Assembly (NCBI GenBank): GCA_030448265.1 | Contig: JAUJNG010000013.1 | Location: 94,621-158,620 of the forward strand | DNA: 64,000 nucleotides | From: Abditibacterium sp. | GTDB taxonomy: Bacteria; Armatimonadota; Abditibacteriia; Abditibacteriales; Abditibacteriaceae | Reading direction: 5' to 3' | Shown here: positions 48,459-54,497 of the stretch, in pieces | How the letters are laid out: each line of letters starts with the position of its first letter | Position numbering within the stretch: position 1 is the first letter of the stretch | Program-made: the position numbers and the translations under genes | Notes under the pieces: generated by a model | Told to the model about the DNA's origin: nothing | The model's input: the letters and a program-made list of their open reading frames with translations, nothing else | Databases searched by the model: none

Positions 48459-49226
48459 AGGCGCGGCAAGCCCATCAAGTGGGCCTTGGCAGGCTCCTTT
48501 CTACAGGGCGAAAGGGTAATATCGAGTTGGAGGCACCAAAATTATGGCGACTTTAGTTGCAAACGACCCGCTTGTCGAAGAATTGATGAAAGTTGAAGGC
48601 AAAGCAGAGATTGTGGATGGAAAAATCAAGGAGTTACCAATGACAGGCGACGAACCCAGTTATGCCAGTGGCAAAATTTTCATTTCGCTGGACATTTACA
48701 GCGAAGCGAACGGCGGGCGCGCGGTTCAAGATGGCGCCGCTTTTCTATGCGAGTTGGCCCATCGCAAATCGTTCTCGCCTGATGCGGCTTTCTACATGGG
48801 GCCGAGGGCTGGCATGCGATTTTTCCCTGAACCACCGGTTTTCGCGGTTGAGGTGCGAAGCGAAAACGACTACGGACGCCGCGCCGAAATCGCCATTCAC
48901 GCCAAGATCGCCGATTATTTCGCGGCGGGCACTCTTGTCGTCTGGGATGTCGATCTGCAAAACGAGGAAGTCGTCGCCAAATACACTTCGCAAAATCCGC
49001 TCGTGCCCCAGGTGTTCCGGCGCGGCGAGACTGCCGACGCCGAGCCTGCCGTTGCGGGCTGGACGCTGCCGGTGGATGCGCTGTTTGCAAGAGAGAGAGG
49101 CGCGTGAAGGCGCGGCAAGCCCATCAAGTGGGCCTTGGCAGGCTCCTTTCTACAGGGCGAAAGGGTAATATCGAGTTGGAGGCACCAAAATTATGGCGAC
49201 TTTAGTTGCAAACGACCCGCTTGTCG
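48399..49226 (+). repeat. 179-bp identical direct repeat spanning the Uma2 gene junctions
   Basis: 48399-48577 is identical to 49048-49226 (offset 649 bp). Confidence 0.9.
48544..49107 (+). CDS. Uma2/DUF820 endonuclease, copy 2
   Basis: Same motifs as copy 1. Confidence 0.9.
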   Translation: MATLVANDPLVEELMKVEGKAEIVDGKIKELPMTGDEPSYASGKIFISLDIYSEANGGRAVQDGAAFLCELAHRKSFSPDAAFYMGPRAGMRFFPEPPVFAVEVRSENDYGRRAEIAIHAKIADYFAAGTLVVWDVDLQNEEVVAKYTSQNPLVPQVFRRGETADAEPAVAGWTLPVDALFARERGA

Positions 49227-49768
49227 GAGAATTGATGAACACGGAGGGTAAGGCGGAGATTGTCGAGGGGAGAATTGTGGAATTTATGTCAACAGGAAAA
49301 GCACCCAACCGTGCGGCGGGACGAATCTATATTTCGCTCGATTCACACGCGCAAAATAGCGACGAGGGCGAAGCCGCGAGCGACAACGCGGGCTTTTTGT
49401 GCGATTTACCCCATCGCGGCTCATTTTCACCGGATGCGGCGTATTATATCGGGCCGGAGAATCCTGATTCGGAGATGGATTTTTTTCCTCAACCGCCTGT
49501 ATTTGCCGTTGAAGTGCGCTCCAAAAACGATTACGGCCCCAAAGCCGAGCGCGCCATTCGCGCCAAAATCGCCGACTATTTCGCGGCGGGCACGCTTGTG
49601 GTGTGGGACGTCGATCTGCAAAATGAGGAAGTGATTGCCAAATACAGCGCCCAAAATCCGCTCGTGCCCCAGGTGTTCCGGCGCGGCGAAATCGCCGACG
49701 CCGAGCCTGCCGTCGCGGGCTGGACGATGCCGGTGGACGCGCTTTTTGCGCGCGCGGCGACAGGCTGA
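49193..49768 (+). CDS. Uma2/DUF820 endonuclease, copy 3
   Basis: Same motifs as copy 1. Confidence 0.9.
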   Translation: MATLVANDPLVGELMNTEGKAEIVEGRIVEFMSTGKAPNRAAGRIYISLDSHAQNSDEGEAASDNAGFLCDLPHRGSFSPDAAYYIGPENPDSEMDFFPQPPVFAVEVRSKNDYGPKAERAIRAKIADYFAAGTLVVWDVDLQNEEVIAKYSAQNPLVPQVFRRGEIADAEPAVAGWTMPVDALFARAATG

Positions 49769-49833: not shown

Positions 49834-50880
49834 CTAAAACGTGCGGCGCAGCGAGACGCCGACGAAAGCATCGGTGCTGTCGTCGGTGAGGCCCAGATCG
49901 GCGTTGGCGCGAAAACTGGTGTCGCCGCCGGAGTTGTAGGAAAGCGATTGTGAAAGGTAAGCCACATTTTGCCCCGCATCGAGCAGAAACGGGCTGGAGA
50001 GGCGGTTGGCGTTGAGGCTGGTCGAAACCGAGAATTCGGGGCCGAGCGCGTAGGAAAAACCGATTTCGCCGCCATACGAGGCCGGAAGCCGGAACCGTTC
50101 GCCATTCACGGTGCGCGACAAACCCTGGCCGTAATTCACCGAACCGAAGAGCTGCAACGGCACGCGCAGTTTGCGAAGCGAAAGGCGCACGAAAGGCTGG
50201 TAAAACCCGTTTCCAGTCGGCAGTTCATTGGGCCGGAGTTCAAAAGTGTCTTTTCCGGTTGGCAAAACCAGGCCGAGCGCGATGCCGGTTTCGACGCCGC
50301 GCTTCGATTCGGGCGAACGGCGCTGCACCACGACCGAAACGTCGCCGATGCCGTTGCCGCGCAGTGTCGTGTTGCTGACGCCGCGAAACTGCACCGATTG
50401 GCCCACGAGCGGCACTCCCACCGCGAGGTTGGTGCGCGGGCCGAGCGGATACTCCGCCGAAACGTTGAGAACGCGGATGCGGCGGCGAATGCGGGCTTCG
50501 CGCGGCGTTGGATCGGCCACCACGATGGTCTGGCCGTCGAACCCAAACGACAAATCGGCATAGGTCGTGACGCGGCGCCTGCCGCTTTCGGGAGTTCCAG
50601 CCGGTTGAACTTCGCGGTCGCCGGTGGGCGAAGTCGAAGAGGCGGCGGAAGGGTTGGCGGGCGGTTCGAGCTGCGCCAGCACGACCCACACCGGCCGCAT
50701 CGGGCGCGAACGCCCAAAAGCGGCATCGGACGCGGGGGTGTTGGCGGCGCGCTTGGCGCGCCAGGCGTGCAGTCGCGGCATGAGTTCCTGAGCGGAACCA
50801 GGCGAGGAAAACAGCCCCGTCAGGGCCAGAAGCGGCAGGATGATGCGGCGGGGAAGGGAGCGAGGCGCAAAAGCGAGCAA
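49834..50880 (-). CDS. Outer-membrane beta-barrel 'transporter' (FapF/phenol-MetA-like)
   Basis: TTG start with RBS aagga. GIGDVSV, VLPTGKD, LPTGNG, LGLTDDSTDAFVGVSLRRTF (terminal F). Confidence 0.72.
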   Translation of the reverse strand: MLAFAPRSLPRRIILPLLALTGLFSSPGSAQELMPRLHAWRAKRAANTPASDAAFGRSRPMRPVWVVLAQLEPPANPSAASSTSPTGDREVQPAGTPESGRRRVTTYADLSFGFDGQTIVVADPTPREARIRRRIRVLNVSAEYPLGPRTNLAVGVPLVGQSVQFRGVSNTTLRGNGIGDVSVVVQRRSPESKRGVETGIALGLVLPTGKDTFELRPNELPTGNGFYQPFVRLSLRKLRVPLQLFGSVNYGQGLSRTVNGERFRLPASYGGEIGFSYALGPEFSVSTSLNANRLSSPFLLDAGQNVAYLSQSLSYNSGGDTSFRANADLGLTDDSTDAFVGVSLRRTF

Positions 50881-50890
50881 GGCGATCCTT

Positions 50891-51511
50891 TTAACGAAAC
50901 GTGGGAATGAGTGGAGCGCGCTTAGTTTCCAAGGCGCGGCGCATTTGGGCAAGGTCGCGCCGCGCCTGGGCGAACGCGGCAGCGTTGACCCGTCCATCGG
51001 GGCGCGCCGCGACGAAAACGTAGCCATCCGTGGCGCTGGGTTTGGCGTCGGGCGCAATCCAGCGCTTCAAAAACGCTTTGCGGCTCATTATGATGTTGCC
51101 CACCGCCGGATCGGATAATCCCACTTCCTTGTCGTTGGCTTCCAGAACGACCGCGAAATGCGGTTCGGGATTGAGCATCCGCACGATAACCGGCGTTCCA
51201 AAGGCGCGCAACTGGTTCTGCAGCGTCGCGTAATCCATGCGAAAGCTGTCGGCGTCGCATTTTTTGGCGGCGGCGGCGGCTTCCAGGCCTTTGAGCGAAG
51301 TTCCACTTGTGGGATTGGTGCTGGCCAGCCGCATGATTTCGGCTTCCTGAGCGGGAATGTCGAGATAAAAGGTCAAAAGCGTCGCGAGGGCTGCGGGGCC
51401 GCAATCGGAAGAGGTCGATTGCGTGATGAGGCGCGCGGAGTCGGCGCGCGCGGCGCTGCCCAGCGCGGGCGTGAGCAGGGCCAGACAAAAAACGGCAGAA
51501 AGTCGGAGCAT
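50891..51511 (-). CDS. Secreted stand-alone C39 peptidase (FapD-like)
   Basis: Signal peptide; QSTSSDCGPAALATLL (Gln, Cys), HFAVV (His), DPA. Confidence 0.88.
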   Translation of the reverse strand: MLRLSAVFCLALLTPALGSAARADSARLITQSTSSDCGPAALATLLTFYLDIPAQEAEIMRLASTNPTSGTSLKGLEAAAAAKKCDADSFRMDYATLQNQLRAFGTPVIVRMLNPEPHFAVVLEANDKEVGLSDPAVGNIIMSRKAFLKRWIAPDAKPSATDGYVFVAARPDGRVNAAAFAQARRDLAQMRRALETKRAPLIPTFR

Positions 51512-51674
51512 GAGGGTAATTTTCCCTGAATGGGGCTAAGAGCGCTTCTGTTTCGCAAAACCTGAGACTTTTTAGACGCGCTCTAAGCGTTGTGAAAAAC
51601 CACAACGCCGGCACCGCTTCTTGCGAATCGGTGCCGGCGTGGGGATGGCCAAGGGCCGGTTGAGCGGCGTCGTT

Positions 51675-51971
51675 TTAGAACGCGCGCGGGGGCAGAGCGC
51701 GACCGGTGGGGGTCAGACCATCACCGGCGGCGTGGTTGCGCCAGTTGTCGGCGGGCGTGAAGCCCTGGCCTGGAGGGCCATAGTGTCCGGTGGTGCCGAA
51801 GCCGTAGCCTGGCTTGGAGGGCAGCACGGGGCAACCGCAGTGGCGACCGGTCACATCGACTTTCTCGGTCGCGGTGACCGATTTGGCGCCCGAAACAACG
51901 GCGACTTTGGCGTCGACCTGGGTGGCAGAAGCCAGCACCGTGAGCGCACTGAGAACAGCAAGAACTTTCAT
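51675..51971 (-). CDS. Small secreted Gly/Pro/His-rich protein
   Basis: RBS gggag; signal peptide ending VDA; HCGC and KPGYGFGTTGHYGPPGQG. Confidence 0.75.
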   Translation of the reverse strand: MKVLAVLSALTVLASATQVDAKVAVVSGAKSVTATEKVDVTGRHCGCPVLPSKPGYGFGTTGHYGPPGQGFTPADNWRNHAAGDGLTPTGRALPPRAF

Positions 51972-52243
51972 TTTGTGTAACTCCCTAAACAAGATTTTTC
52001 CCCTCGTCCAAGGGCGAGGTTAGTCCCGTAGTAAACAAAGAATTTGCCATATTTTTAAGCGTGAATCTGCCACGGGTATATTTAGTGGTTAAACGTATCC
52101 ACCCGTTCGACCGCCTGAAAAAAATTCTTGTTCCCATCGAGCGAGACGCGCCTTTGGATTTGCTTTTTTGCTCCCCTGGCGGCATCTATTCTGCATTGGG
52201 GCCTGACCCCTCGTGGGGATGAACTCACCAAGGAGAAAATGAC

Positions 52244-52908
52244 ATGGCACGACTCGAAGGCGAAAAGAAATCCATTTTGCCCATTATTGTGGGCGCACTT
52301 TTGTTCGCAGGACTCGCGGCAGGAGCCTATTACCTGATGGGCAACCGCGCCAATGACGGCAACACCGCCGGCCAAACCACAACCATCGACAACGGCGCAG
52401 GCGCATCCACAACCGATGACGCAGCCGCAACGGAAAACAGCGCCGACAACACGGCAACCGACAACACAGCGACCGACAATGCGATGAGCGGCAACACCGC
52501 GACGGATAACGCGGCGACCGATAACACAGCGACCGGCAACGCGATGAGCGACAACGCGATGTCAACCGACAATGCCGCATCCGGCAACGCGATGTCAGGC
52601 GGTAACGCGATGTCGAGCGGCAATGCGATGTCTTCGGGCAACGCCGCTTCTGATAACGCGGCCAGCGGCAACGCGATGTCCGGTGGAAACGCGATGTCGA
52701 GCGGCAACGCGGCTTCGGCGGGGCGATGAGCGGCAGCGCGACGAACAATGCCACCAGCAGCACGGCAACCGAAGCCAAGGCGAAGCCTCTCGCGGCTCGT
52801 TCCAAAACCATCACCAACGACAAAGCCAAGACGATGGTGACTTATCGCAAAGAGGTCATGCCCAATGGCACTGTGAATCGCACTCAAACCAAAACCGGCA
52901 CATCCTGA
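52244..52908 (+). CDS. Membrane-anchored DNTAT/GNAMS repeat protein, probably one gene split by a 1-nt frameshift
   Basis: TM helix followed by about 17 penta/hexapeptide repeats. ORF 52726-52908 begins MSG and becomes in-frame if the G4 run at 52720-52723 were G5. Confidence 0.7.
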
Positions 52909-52931: not shown

Positions 52932-52965
52932 AAAAAACCCCGAACCAAATTGGTTCGGGGTTTTT
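52932..52965. terminator. Bidirectional intrinsic terminator
   Basis: aaaaaaccccgaacca-aat-tggttcggggttttt. Confidence 0.85.
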
Positions 52966-52973
52966 CGTTGCGG

Positions 52974-53138
52974 TTATTTGCAGCAGGGAGCGCAGGTCTG
53001 GCCGCACTTCGAGCAGCATTTGCCCTGGGTGCAGCAGGTGCCGCAGGTTTTGCCTTCGGCGGCGGAAGCCGACACGGCGCCGACACAGCTCGCGGCGAGA
53101 ACGCCCAACAGGGCGGCTTTGGCGATTAATTGTTTCAT
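52974..53138 (-). CDS. Secreted Cys-rich (metallothionein-like) peptide, 54 aa
   Basis: RBS ggagg; signal peptide ending ASA; mature AEGKTCGTCCTQGKCCSKCGQTCAPCCK has 9 Cys. Confidence 0.78.
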   Translation of the reverse strand: MKQLIAKAALLGVLAASCVGAVSASAAEGKTCGTCCTQGKCCSKCGQTCAPCCK

Positions 53139-53181
53139 TTTCAGTCCTCCTTCGGGTTTGGTTTTTCTGACGCGCAACAAT

Positions 53182-53595
53182 TCAACAGGGAGCCGGTGGT
53201 GCGCGACAAGAAAACGCAGATCCAAAGATTCGGCGCGGCGGAGGCGGGTCAACTTCGCCCGCGATGTGGGCGATTCGAGTCGTGGGCGCCGCAAAAAAAA
53301 CAGGAGAAGCGAAATTAGCTTCGGATAGCGCGGAATCGGAGGCAAAATCCGCTAACGCCGTGGGAATCGACGCCCTTTGCGGCGGGAGCGGCGCTGCGAC
53401 CGAGCCGAGGATCCCCACATTCGGAGCAGCTTCGCGGCAACAGTCGCCGCAGGGCATAGCGCACTGCGGCACATTCTGGGCGCACATCGGCGCGATTTCA
53501 TTCCCGATGCAAACGCGCGCTGCCAGGGGCGAAAAAGAGCTGAGCAGCGCAAAAAACGCCGCAAAAATCCAAGTTTTAGCCCTGAAAAATTGCAT
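53182..53595 (-). CDS. Cys-rich exported uORF ending in RAPP (DUF2946/CruR-like)
   Basis: N-terminal hydrophobic segment; C-x8-C-x6-C-x3-C-x2-CC; ends CRAPPAPC*. Confidence 0.7.
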   Translation of the reverse strand: MQFFRAKTWIFAAFFALLSSFSPLAARVCIGNEIAPMCAQNVPQCAMPCGDCCREAAPNVGILGSVAAPLPPQRASIPTALADFASDSALSEANFASPVFFAAPTTRIAHIAGEVDPPPPRRIFGSAFSCRAPPAPC

Positions 53596-53684: not shown

Positions 53685-54497
53685 TCAACGCCGCGCCCAC
53701 AACAAATAGACCTCGAACTGCCCCGCCTCCGGTTCCCTTTCCGTCCAGATTTGGCTCAGGCCGTGATGTTGGAGAAGCTTTCGCATGGCGTCGAGGCGCC
53801 CGTTTTCGTCATGCACTTCGGCCACGATTTGGGTGATTTTGGGCCAGTCTGCGCGGTCTATTCCGGCCAGAACGTCCATCTCGGCGCCTTCCACGTCGAT
53901 TTTAAGCACATCGAGGCGCGAAACGGCCAATTTTCGAAGCTGCGCCGACAACGGTTCGACGGGGCATGTCACAGTGCGCGAGGCGAACAGAATGCGGCAC
54001 AAAACGGCCAGAAAAACCGCGCGAAGCGACCTGGGAGCGCGGCGAAACCAACCGCAGCGCGGCGTGAGTTGGGGATTGTCGAACACACTCTCGACCGCGA
54101 CACGCGCATTTCTGCGGGTTTCGGCAGGAAAGCGGGTCGAAAGCGCGCTCAGAAAGCGAAAATAAGTGAAAGTCGCAGTTTCGCTTCGCTCGCCCAGCGC
54201 CAGGGGGTGAACTTCGATTTTTCCTTTTCCCAGAGCTTTGGCGTTGGCGCGAAGCGCGGCAAATGTGGCGGGCATTGGCTCGAAAGCGTGAACTTTGGCT
54301 CCCATTTGGGCCGCTTCGAGCGCGAACAAACCGATATTGGCGCCGACATCGAAAACCACGTCATCGGGGCGAATTTCCAGGCCATGCGCGAAATAACCTT
54401 GCGCCTGGGCGTGCACGCCGCGCACTTCGTCGCGGTGAACGCACCAGACGCGGCGGCCATCGGGCAAAGCGACACGTTTCAAACGCGTTTTCTTCAT
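53685..54497 (-). CDS. FkbM family methyltransferase
   Basis: VFDVGANIG, AFEP, LKIDVEGAE, EVH; ATGA coupling to cinA. Confidence 0.9.
   Translation of the reverse strand: MKKTRLKRVALPDGRRVWCVHRDEVRGVHAQAQGYFAHGLEIRPDDVVFDVGANIGLFALEAAQMGAKVHAFEPMPATFAALRANAKALGKGKIEVHPLALGERSETATFTYFRFLSALSTRFPAETRRNARVAVESVFDNPQLTPRCGWFRRAPRSLRAVFLAVLCRILFASRTVTCPVEPLSAQLRKLAVSRLDVLKIDVEGAEMDVLAGIDRADWPKITQIVAEVHDENGRLDAMRKLLQHHGLSQIWTEREPEAGQFEVYLLWARR

Follow-up and report, generated by a model that had tools for sequence, protein, structure and literature searches.

A candidate RAPP arrest-peptide switch preceding a secreted, cysteine-rich peptide in Abditibacterium

A two-gene unit conserved among Abditibacterium-like lineages

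The window analyzed here, a stretch of 64,000 nucleotides (nt) from an Abditibacterium genome (assembly GCA_030448265.1, contig JAUJNG010000013.1, positions 94,621 to 158,620), carries on its minus strand a compact pair of genes, referred to below as open reading frames (ORFs) 1 and 2. ORF1 encodes an exported leader protein that terminates shortly after an Arg-Ala-Pro-Pro (RAPP) motif, and ORF2 encodes the precursor of a secreted Cys- and Lys-rich peptide. With the spacer between them and an intrinsic terminator behind ORF2, the whole system is self-contained and occupies only about 620 nt (Table 1). A first-pass annotation made from the sequence had drawn attention to positions 52974-53595 as a possible metal-sensing arrest switch; the features that it described are all present, and they lie on the minus strand, a point left unstated there.

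ORF1 is read from an ATG at 53595 to a TGA at 53184-53182. An alternative, longer reading of 172 residues would begin at a GTG at 53700, but the ATG is taken as the start because all homologues begin at its equivalent, with M(Q/R/H)F..K.W. The protein has the sequence MQFFRAKTWIFAAFFALLSSFSPLAARVC IGNEIAPMCAQNVPQCAMPCGDCC ... EVDPPPPRRIFGSAFSCRAPPAPC and ends, directly before the stop codon, in FSCRAPPAPC. By inspection, its N-terminus contains R5 and K7 followed by a hydrophobic stretch of 16-18 residues that ends in SPLAAR, a layout predicted to be a signal peptide or an N-in/C-out anchor, and this block (M.F..K.W......AL....SPLAAR.C) is the most conserved part of the ORF1 family. Six Cys residues are clustered at positions 29, 38, 45, 49, 52, and 53, and two more are found at 130 and 137. 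C29 and C53 are invariant across the family and a CC or CCC doublet is present in seven of eight members, although the form of the cluster varies from member to member (CGDCC, CHNWC, CGHCC, FCCC, or PCCC). From the doublet to the Arg of the R[AG]PP motif the distance is 67-78 residues. An AlphaFold2 model built from the family alignment has a mean predicted local distance difference test (pLDDT) score of 40, with a helix at residues 5-18 as the sole predicted structure; the lack of a predicted globular fold beyond the signal helix fits a function exerted as a nascent chain.

The ORF2 precursor reads MKQLIAKAALLGVLAASCVGAVSASA up to its predicted cleavage point and AEGKTCGTCCTQGKCCSKCGQTCAPCCK beyond it. 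Its signal peptide is typical of the Sec pathway, with a cleavage site placed by inspection between VSASA and AE, leaving a mature part of 28 residues that contains nine Cys (32%), four Lys, and no hydrophobic or aromatic residue. The count of nine Cys given in the first-pass annotation is correct, with two trivial slips in their placement: they fall within 22 residues rather than 23, in the pattern CxxCC....CC..C...C..CC rather than CxxCC..CC..C...C..CC. Mature orthologues are 22-37 residues long and have 6, 8, 9, or 10 Cys, with five invariant Cys columns, many Lys residues, and a remainder that is small or polar. A composition of metallothionein type (about 30% Cys, CC/CxC/CxxC motifs, no aromatics) is found in six of six ORF2 orthologues. 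Searches of Pfam, NCBIfam, and the PDB returned no relative of ORF2, the PDB profile search giving signal-peptide noise alone, and these searches together with a word-index search placed it in no known metallothionein family. As an argument from composition, the variable and odd Cys counts and the absence of hydrophobic residues speak against a disulfide-knotted toxin or defensin fold and favor a metal-thiolate or thiol-buffer peptide; it is likewise amino-acid composition that makes the terms metal-sensing and metallothionein-like plausible for the pair. ORF2 was also considered as a lipoprotein, on account of its LAASC sequence, and rejected as such, the Cys in question being confined to the window clade. 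Three soil or biocrust metatranscriptome runs contain Logan contigs of 172-209 nt, 89-96% identical to the window, that cover ORF2 and a few bases of the spacer (52967-53160), and the peptide gene is therefore expressed in nature.

Homologues were recovered in three steps: a word-index search yielded one (69% identical), an exhaustive run of HMMER over 1.84 billion representatives added four more distant ones, and a profile search added three. The homologue contigs and one GTDB metagenome-assembled genome (MAG) fall into eight Abditibacterium-like lineages, namely the window, L001, L003, L004/L033, L007, L112/L113, L114, and L115. ORF1 proteins of these lineages are 132-143 residues long and 33-70% identical. 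The first-pass annotation had made its proposal depend on conservation of the gene pair, and the pair is indeed conserved: all eight lineages retain R[AG]PP 2-4 residues before the ORF1 stop, a short spacer of 34-54 nt with a strong ribosome-binding site (AAGGAGG), and a downstream, same-strand ORF2 of 48-62 residues with the signal peptide ..LLGVLAA...AVSAS. and a Cys/Lys-rich tail, followed by an intrinsic terminator (equivalents were noted 3' of ORF2 in L003, L004, L007, L112, and L114). Pairwise ratios of nonsynonymous to synonymous divergence (dN/dS) are 0.19-0.46 for ORF1 and 0.13-0.36 for ORF2, with dS values up to saturation. Both are real genes under purifying selection.

The presence of the motif near a stop codon carries little weight when a single genome is considered. 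Six-frame translation of the window (59% G+C) gives nine R[AG]PP occurrences in 591 stop-to-stop segments of at least 60 residues, three of them within 10 residues of the stop compared with about 0.7 expected, and the two besides ORF1 are antisense to real genes. One stop-proximal R[AG]PP is thus only mildly unusual, and weak evidence by itself; what lifts the ORF1-ORF2 pair above chance is that eight lineages retain both the pair and the placement of its motif. The best-matching genomes are Abditibacterium MAGs, the sequencing runs that contain the sequence are soil metagenomes, and the searches made found no relative outside the Abditibacterium-like group. No candidates came from a word-index search with ORF2; a scan of genome contigs with ORF1 peptide patterns gave 37 matches with no relative among them; scanning metagenome contigs for the ribosome-binding site and start of ORF2 (pattern AGGAGGANTGAAAATGAAACAA) returned 24 chance matches without a Cys-rich peptide among them; and tblastn of the ORF1 homologue P0003 against plasmids gave nothing relevant. 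One MAG (L032, 5870-6145) has an orthologous FkbM-family gene followed by a terminator and tRNA genes in place of ORF1-ORF2, so that the pair either is not universal in the genus or is located elsewhere in that genome.

Both ORFs are easily missed, as the first-pass annotation had anticipated, and several public assemblies skip or miscall them. Public gene calls for L004 (8332-8727), L005, L006, and L114 (1357-1506) omit ORF2 and instead give an antisense ORF of 131 or 49 residues across it, and the public annotation of L112 and L113 has no gene at all in the gap downstream of ORF1.

The arrest motif and the RNA around the ORF2 start

RAPP occupies residues 131-134 of the 137 in ORF1, three residues before the stop. 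The motif is an established ribosome arrest motif, as the first-pass annotation had stated (PMC10951233), and robust arrest refractory to elongation factor P (EF-P) is obtained most readily with RAPP and RGPP (PMC12992588). The same two rank among the tetrapeptides most strongly depleted from bacterial proteomes, and small exported proteins are enriched for them close to the C-terminus (PMC12992588). Like arrest peptides of this class, ORF1 is a small protein with the motif near its C-terminus and conserved among orthologues. According to the published stall-site assignments (PMC10951233; PMC12992588), the ribosome is predicted to halt when CCA (53199-53197) occupies the P-site and CCG the A-site. 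Further upstream, a DPPPP block at residues 116-120 has D116, P118, and P119 invariant, and its distance from D..PP to the Arg of the motif is 14-15 residues in eight of eight members; in terms of the two-module model of RAPP arrest peptides (PMC10951233), this block is probably the part of the arrest module that interacts with the tunnel.

The alignment of eight ORF1 sequences has 21 invariant columns of 137, among them S129, R131, P133, and P134. Seven lineages have RAPP and one has RGPP: in L004/L033, the usual ...FSCRAPPxxx ending is replaced by ...GCRSSGRGPPSI, with RGPP two residues before the stop. Without selection for arrest, it is difficult to account for a motif that is both kept and re-created at a constant distance from the stop codon. 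The codons are also distinctive. Four of those in the module are rare in this genome, as a share of their codon families (TCT 7%, TGT 14%, GCA 7%, and CCA 10%), and two of them do not vary among the eight lineages, the RGPP variant included, despite saturated synonymous divergence: TGT, which encodes the Cys ahead of the Arg, and CCA, the codon of the P-site Pro. This suggests a constraint on the nucleotides themselves. Within the RGPP lineage, the near-identical contigs L033 (3821-4225) and L004 (8001-8405) differ five positions before RGPP (GCRSSGRGPP and GCCSSGRGPP, respectively), a polymorphism inside the arrest module.

In most of the eight lineages, minimum free energy (MFE) folds of the ORF1 3' end and spacer pair the segment UUU UCU UGU CGC GC, directly before the P-site Pro codon, with spacer sequence that lies shortly before the ORF2 ribosome-binding site. 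The helix was examined lineage by lineage, as a family-wide RNA alignment misaligns the 3' arms of spacers that differ in length and content. Compared with dinucleotide-shuffled spacers, the duplex is significant in six of eight lineages (p 0.002-0.046). In L001 compared with the window, a synonymous UCU-to-UCC change is offset by an A-to-G change in the spacer, a compensatory conversion of one U-A pair to C-G. The 3' arm of the L003 clade, ACAAGAAAAAGG, reaches the ribosome-binding site itself and takes in its first G residues.

The position of this helix relative to the predicted stall is consistent with a role in initiation at ORF2. A ribosome arrested with CCA in its P-site would cover about -15 to +15, that is, the entire 5' arm and as far as the stop codon, and would leave the ribosome-binding site (+40 to +60) and the AUG (+52 to +72) free for a second ribosome. 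Partition-function modeling puts the mean cost of opening the ribosome-binding site at 7.3 kcal/mol in free mRNA, 6.1 kcal/mol with one stalled ribosome, and 4.7 kcal/mol with a stalled and a queued ribosome, compared with 6.9-7.2 kcal/mol when control blocks are placed elsewhere. The arrangement is that of SecM/CutF-type unmasking, a mechanism that is plausible here although the modeled gain is modest and uneven.

An additional hairpin of 12-14 base pairs is present in L003 (2630-2675), L112 (10423-10470), and L115 (936-985). It starts at +9 to +11 from the P-site codon, includes the stop codon, and lies at the mRNA entry site of a RAPP-paused ribosome. Compensatory substitutions maintain it (AAUCA/UGAUU, GAGCG/CGUUC, and GAGCAG/CUGCUC). 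This hairpin is restricted to the L003 clade and is absent from the other lineages folded.

Table 1. Features of the ORF1-ORF2 locus and its upstream neighbor (window coordinates)
Feature	Coordinates	Strand	Basis
ORF1, 137-residue exported leader protein, candidate regulatory arrest peptide	53182..53595	minus	ORF and translation
Predicted N-terminal export signal or signal-anchor of ORF1, residues 1-27	53515..53595	minus	inspection, conservation
Cys cluster of ORF1, candidate periplasmic sensor	53437..53511	minus	C29, C38, C45, C49, C52, C53
D-P-P-P-P block of ORF1, residues 116-120	53236..53250	minus	conservation
Putative arrest module F-S-C-R-A-P-P (TTT TCT TGT CGC GCA CCA CCG)	53194..53214	minus	conservation
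5' arm of long-range helix, coding sequence directly 5' of the P-site Pro codon	53200..53219	minus	MFE folds
3' arm of helix, spacer just 5' of the ORF2 ribosome-binding site	53158..53177	minus	MFE folds, duplex test
ORF1-ORF2 spacer, 43 nt, with Shine-Dalgarno GAAGGAGGA at 53153-53145	53139..53181	minus	sequence
ORF2, 54-residue precursor, secreted Cys/Lys-rich peptide	52974..53138	minus	ORF, orthologue alignment
Bidirectional intrinsic terminator CCCCGAACC-AATTT-GGTTCGGGG, flanking A-run and T-run	52932..52966	both	read from sequence
Upstream neighbor, FkbM-family methyltransferase (Pfam PF05050, TIGR01444)	53685..54497	minus	profile matches

Proposed mechanism, genomic setting and alternatives

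Read from its sequence and conservation, the unit is most likely an arrest switch of the CutF/CruR kind in which a protein family outside the reach of the DUF2946 model controls a Sec-exported, metallothionein-like mini-peptide. The parts of this reading differ in strength. It is probable that ORF1 is a regulatory RAPP arrest peptide. The fuller account, in which an arrest peptide of the RAPP/RGPP class has ORF2 as its controlled gene, is the best explanation overall and stands evenly balanced between being right and wrong; the proposal that metal is the signal is more tentative and falls somewhat short of that balance.

The anatomy of the unit, its conservation, the purifying selection on both genes, and the RNA complementarity are observed directly; that the ribosome stalls, which way control runs, and what the signal is are inferred by analogy with characterized systems, according to the following scheme. 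ORF1 would be translated and exported cotranslationally via its N-terminal signal. The spacing of 67-78 residues between Cys doublet and motif approximates the reach of the exit tunnel and translocon, and so the Cys cluster, some 70-80 residues upstream, should already be outside the membrane during a RAPP pause. The paused ribosome would cover the F-S-C-R-A codons, which in free mRNA pair with the spacer beside the ORF2 ribosome-binding site. A long pause would keep that site open and permit translation of ORF2 from its very strong Shine-Dalgarno sequence, and quick release would allow the helix to re-form and ORF2 output to remain low. Pause length, by analogy with CutF, may depend on the chemical state of the Cys cluster after export. 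Folding or oxidation of free thiols would pull on the chain and release the stall, whereas no such release would follow if the thiols were occupied by a thiophilic metal, Cu(I) or possibly Zn, Cd, or Hg. ORF2 would then serve as a thiol buffer of metallothionein type, secreted and produced when needed. A more speculative and rather unlikely extension makes the circuit self-referential, such that the paused ORF1 Cys cluster mimics ORF2 (CGDCC compared with CGTCC or KCC) and the pause lengthens only when free thiophilic metal or oxidant exceeds the capacity of the ORF2 pool. If true, this circuit would titrate an exported metallothionein at the level of translation alone, without a transcription factor, and would provide the first arrest-peptide-controlled, Sec-exported bacterial metallothionein together with a DUF2946-independent sensor family, in a phylum with almost no molecular genetics.

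The genes around the unit are only partly constant. It lies downstream of cinA in all lineages and is divergent from hemN-lpxC. In half of the lineages the FkbM-family gene is inserted between cinA and ORF1; it is found upstream of ORF1 in L001, L004, and L007 and is missing from the L003/L112 clade, where cinA directly precedes ORF1. The FkbM-family gene is thus a variable neighbor rather than a fixed component. The terminator, a GC-rich hairpin of 9 base pairs, ends both the ORF1-ORF2 unit and a converging gene, and in the L112/L114 clade the next gene downstream, beyond the terminator, encodes a TrxB-type pyridine-nucleotide disulfide oxidoreductase. The converging gene (52244-52908, plus strand) encodes a membrane-anchored protein (MARLEGEKKS...) with N/S/T/D/A-rich tandem repeats in periods of 15, 18, 30, and 66 nt and no Pfam match. 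It is split in the window into overlapping frames (52244-52729 and 52726-52908), through either a frameshift or misassembly of the repeats, and is a single ORF of 211-218 residues in L004 and L033. Beyond it, three minus-strand genes at 49834-51992 encode a secreted protein of 105 residues, a periplasmic C39 peptidase (PF03412, with weak FapD/FilB similarity), and an outer-membrane protein (weak FapF/FilC similarity), a set that looks like a Fap/Fil-type fiber or amyloid secretion module. The C39 cluster is syntenic in L004 and L006, and cluster and repeat gene together are syntenic in the window and L004 clades; both were left out of the unit because they are not syntenic in L112. Two tandem plus-strand genes of the Uma2 family (PF05685), putatively restriction-endonuclease-like, follow at 48544-49768. 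The combination of FkbM methyltransferase and C39 peptidase also raised the possibility of a ribosomally synthesized and post-translationally modified peptide (RiPP) or bacteriocin, which was rejected: FkbM is missing in half of the lineages, in L112 the C39 gene does not adjoin the pair, and ORF2 carries a Sec signal rather than a GG leader.

Several observations weigh against the proposed metal-responsive switch. No metal-homeostasis gene is found near the pair, the neighbors being cinA, hemN, lpxC, the methyltransferase, the repeat protein, and the C39/FapF-like cluster. ORF1 would work like CutF or CruR as a separate family, its likeness to the copper sensors being architectural only. The duplex test is not significant in two of the eight lineages, L004 and L007, in which pairing with the site comes from other segments upstream, and in the window clade the 3' arm stops about 8 nt before the ribosome-binding site and leaves it uncovered. 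The computed unmasking is modest: its direction is right, but it is small and uneven across lineages, the opening cost in the window running from 7.0 to 5.2 to 6.6 kcal/mol with no, one, and two ribosomes and that in L114 rising with one ribosome. Finally, the metatranscriptome contigs contain no ORF1, leaving room for an ORF2-specific promoter or a processed transcript; they could reflect a separate promoter, a stable processed 3' fragment, or an ORF1 too divergent to map.

The main rival retains the arrest switch and changes its signal to thiol redox state or the oxidative-folding capacity of the envelope. Disulfide formation would release the stall, reducing conditions or Dsb overload would prolong it, and ORF2, by virtue of its CxxC and CC motifs, would be a small redox-active or sacrificial thiol peptide. 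Taken as a complete account it is unlikely, although as a signal thiol redox fits the observations equally as well as metal does. Upstream ORFs with RAPP/RGPP are enriched before DsbA-family and thioredoxin-like genes (PMC12992588), the current CutF model has disulfide formation as the stall-releasing step, the neighborhood is without metal genes, and the TrxB-type oxidoreductase is the next downstream gene in the L112/L114 clade. That gene, however, lies beyond the terminator and is missing from the window clade, and a 28-residue peptide with odd and variable Cys counts would make an unusual redox catalyst.

A less probable account dispenses with arrest altogether and treats ORF1 and ORF2 as exported products that are merely expressed together. 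ORF1 might, for instance, be a membrane-anchored partner, a chaperone, or an immunity protein, ORF2 an antimicrobial or signaling peptide rich in disulfides, and CRAPP a structural or binding motif that has no role in translation. The cationic character of ORF2 in most lineages (net +3 to +6), the C39 peptidase and outer-membrane transporter 1.5 kb away, the metatranscriptome contigs with ORF2 RNA and no ORF1, and the weakness of the modeled unmasking are all consistent with this view. The signal peptide of ORF2 is nevertheless of Sec type with an AxA site, offering no GG leader for C39 processing, and the C39 cluster is separated from the pair by the converging gene and is not beside it in L112. 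Mature ORF2 also has no hydrophobic or aromatic residues and a variable Cys count, and RAPP/RGPP is strongly counter-selected in ordinary proteins (PMC12992588) but is here kept and rebuilt at a fixed distance from the stop.

ORF1 might instead be a secretion monitor of the SecM/ApdA/ApdP kind, released by Sec/YidC pulling alone with its Cys residues incidental, so that ORF2 serves as an envelope-stress peptide when export is impaired. An export signal with a C-terminal RAPP does define the ApdA/ApdP-type architecture (PMC7897499; PMC10987492; PMC10951233), but the downstream gene is not a Sec/YidC component and few features of the family are as well conserved as the Cys cluster (C29, C53, and the CC doublet), making this reading quite improbable. 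Least probable of all is a stall that acts on transcription or mRNA fate in the manner of CruR or TnaC, the ribosome at the end of ORF1 blocking Rho or RNase and ORF2 mRNA being completed or stabilized only during arrest: CruR acts in this way (PMC9426467) and the ORF2-only RNA contigs could be a stable processed 3' fragment, but a spacer of 34-54 nt, compared with 162 nt in cruR-bfrG, leaves little room for a rut site, and the conserved pairing and strong ribosome-binding site point to control of initiation.

Relation to known arrest peptides and metallothioneins

The first-pass annotation had suggested a search of ORF1 against DUF2946 (PF11162), the family of the known copper-responsive leaders, and the result is negative: ORF1 of the window gives no match at E ≤ 10, and the best of the 11 ORF1-family members reaches 16.3 bits (P0003, E 0.017) against a gathering score of 23.7 bits. 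A second member, P0009, scores 9.9 bits (E 1.6). Both of these sub-threshold matches are full-length, in the same register, and end at RAPP. Comparison of the ORF1 family with seven CzcI-type plasmid proteins by hhalign gave a probability of 1.9%, aligning only the signal peptide and first Cys; this comparator is peripheral, as it lacks RAPP and only four of its seven proteins match PF11162. ORF1 shares with DUF2946 proteins the C-terminal RAPP a few residues before the stop and, by inspection, an N-terminal signal or anchor, but the 67-78 residues between Cys motif and RAPP differ from the DUF2946 spacing of CXXC about 45 ± 2 residues before RAPP. ORF1 is treated as a separate family because of this spacing and the failure of the PF11162 model.

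The closest parallels to ORF2 in composition are the bacterial metallothioneins (SmtA/BmtA, PmtA, and MymT) and the exported copper-storage protein Csp1, which are small, about 30% Cys with CxC, CC, or CxxC motifs, rich in Lys, Ser, Thr, and Gly, and poor in hydrophobic residues. None of them has sequence similarity to ORF2. To our knowledge, the known bacterial metallothioneins are without signal peptides, and Csp1 is a four-helix bundle exported by the Tat pathway; ORF2, by contrast, is predicted to be exported by Sec.

Arrest peptides that sense extracytoplasmic conditions have been worked out only recently, with CruR in 2022, CutF in 2023-25, and a survey of RAPP/RGPP proteins in 2025, and the targets described for arrest peptides of this kind are enzymes, transporters, or chaperones. 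The suggestion of the first-pass annotation that the target type is new for RAPP-bearing upstream ORFs is upheld, in that none of the arrest-peptide papers in the library searched mentions a metallothionein-like target. Of the better-known systems, ApdA, ApdP, SecM, VemP, and MifM differ from ORF1 in having Sec/YidC components as targets, translocation force alone as the signal, and no Cys cluster. The proteins surveyed by Fujiwara et al. in 2025 (e.g. Streptomyces lividans SLIV_16130 and SLIV_18480) are more similar, with fewer than 300 residues, a localization signal, a C-terminal RAPP/RGPP, and a same-strand downstream gene. Some have conserved Cys/His residues predicted to bind metal and lie upstream of copper or thioredoxin-like genes (PMC12992588). 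That survey describes neither an example from Abditibacteriota nor a small Cys-rich peptide as target; its methods dropped pairs with an "unknown" downstream gene (PMC12992588), and a pair such as ORF1-ORF2 could therefore not be reported there. Surveys with this blind spot would overlook modules of the same kind. If confirmed, the switch would add a sensor family invisible to the DUF2946 model, suggesting that the combination of export signal, Cys, and RAPP arose or diverged repeatedly, as well as a novel kind of target, a very small secreted peptide, rich in Cys, that annotation often misses or replaces by an antisense ORF. For Abditibacteriota, a phylum of soils and biocrusts from which one genus has been cultured, it would also provide a first mechanism of regulation.

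The two DUF2946 leaders provide the most instructive comparison, and the first-pass annotation was right that leaders of the DUF2946/CruR type couple copper sensing to downstream genes; CruR and CutF do so via a C-terminal RAPP or Pro-rich stall (PMC9426467; PMC9973294; bioRxiv 10.1101/2025.02.05.636593). CruR (Bp2923) of Bordetella pertussis resembles ORF1 in its export signal, its Cys motif, its RAPP three residues before the stop, and its place at the head of an operon. Its motif is CXXC, with 45 ± 2 residues between the two motifs (PMC9426467) rather than the 67-78 of the ORF1 family, and arrest with two Pro codons in the P- and A-sites has been demonstrated in vitro (PMC12992588). Unlike the scheme proposed here, CruR senses copper in the cytoplasm, independently of its signal peptide; copper relieves arrest, after which Rho terminates transcription in the 162-nt intergenic region (PMC9426467) ahead of the target, a TonB-dependent transporter.

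CutF of Rhodobacter capsulatus (cutFOG) combines a Sec signal, a periplasmic CxxxC, and a C-terminal PPP stall, and copper binding blocks disulfide formation, prolongs the stall, and switches CutO on (PMC9973294; bioRxiv 10.1101/2025.02.05.636593). As to the location of its Cys residues, ORF1 appears closer to CutF, with its periplasmic sensing, than to CruR. The differences lie in the components: the PPP stall of CutF is relieved by EF-P and ORF1 has RAPP, the target of CutF is a Tat-exported multicopper oxidase rather than a 28-residue mature peptide, CutF is a DUF2946 member and ORF1 goes unrecognized by the DUF2946 model, and CutF has a single CxxxC where ORF1 has a cluster of five or six Cys. 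The plan proposed for ORF1-ORF2 is nonetheless the same in outline, with a small Sec-exported leader that has no stable fold or function of its own, a Cys motif that needs the periplasm, a C-terminal Pro-based stall, and an RNA structure between leader and target that hides the target ribosome-binding site until the stall opens it. By this analogy, CutF is the best mechanistic match to ORF1-ORF2.

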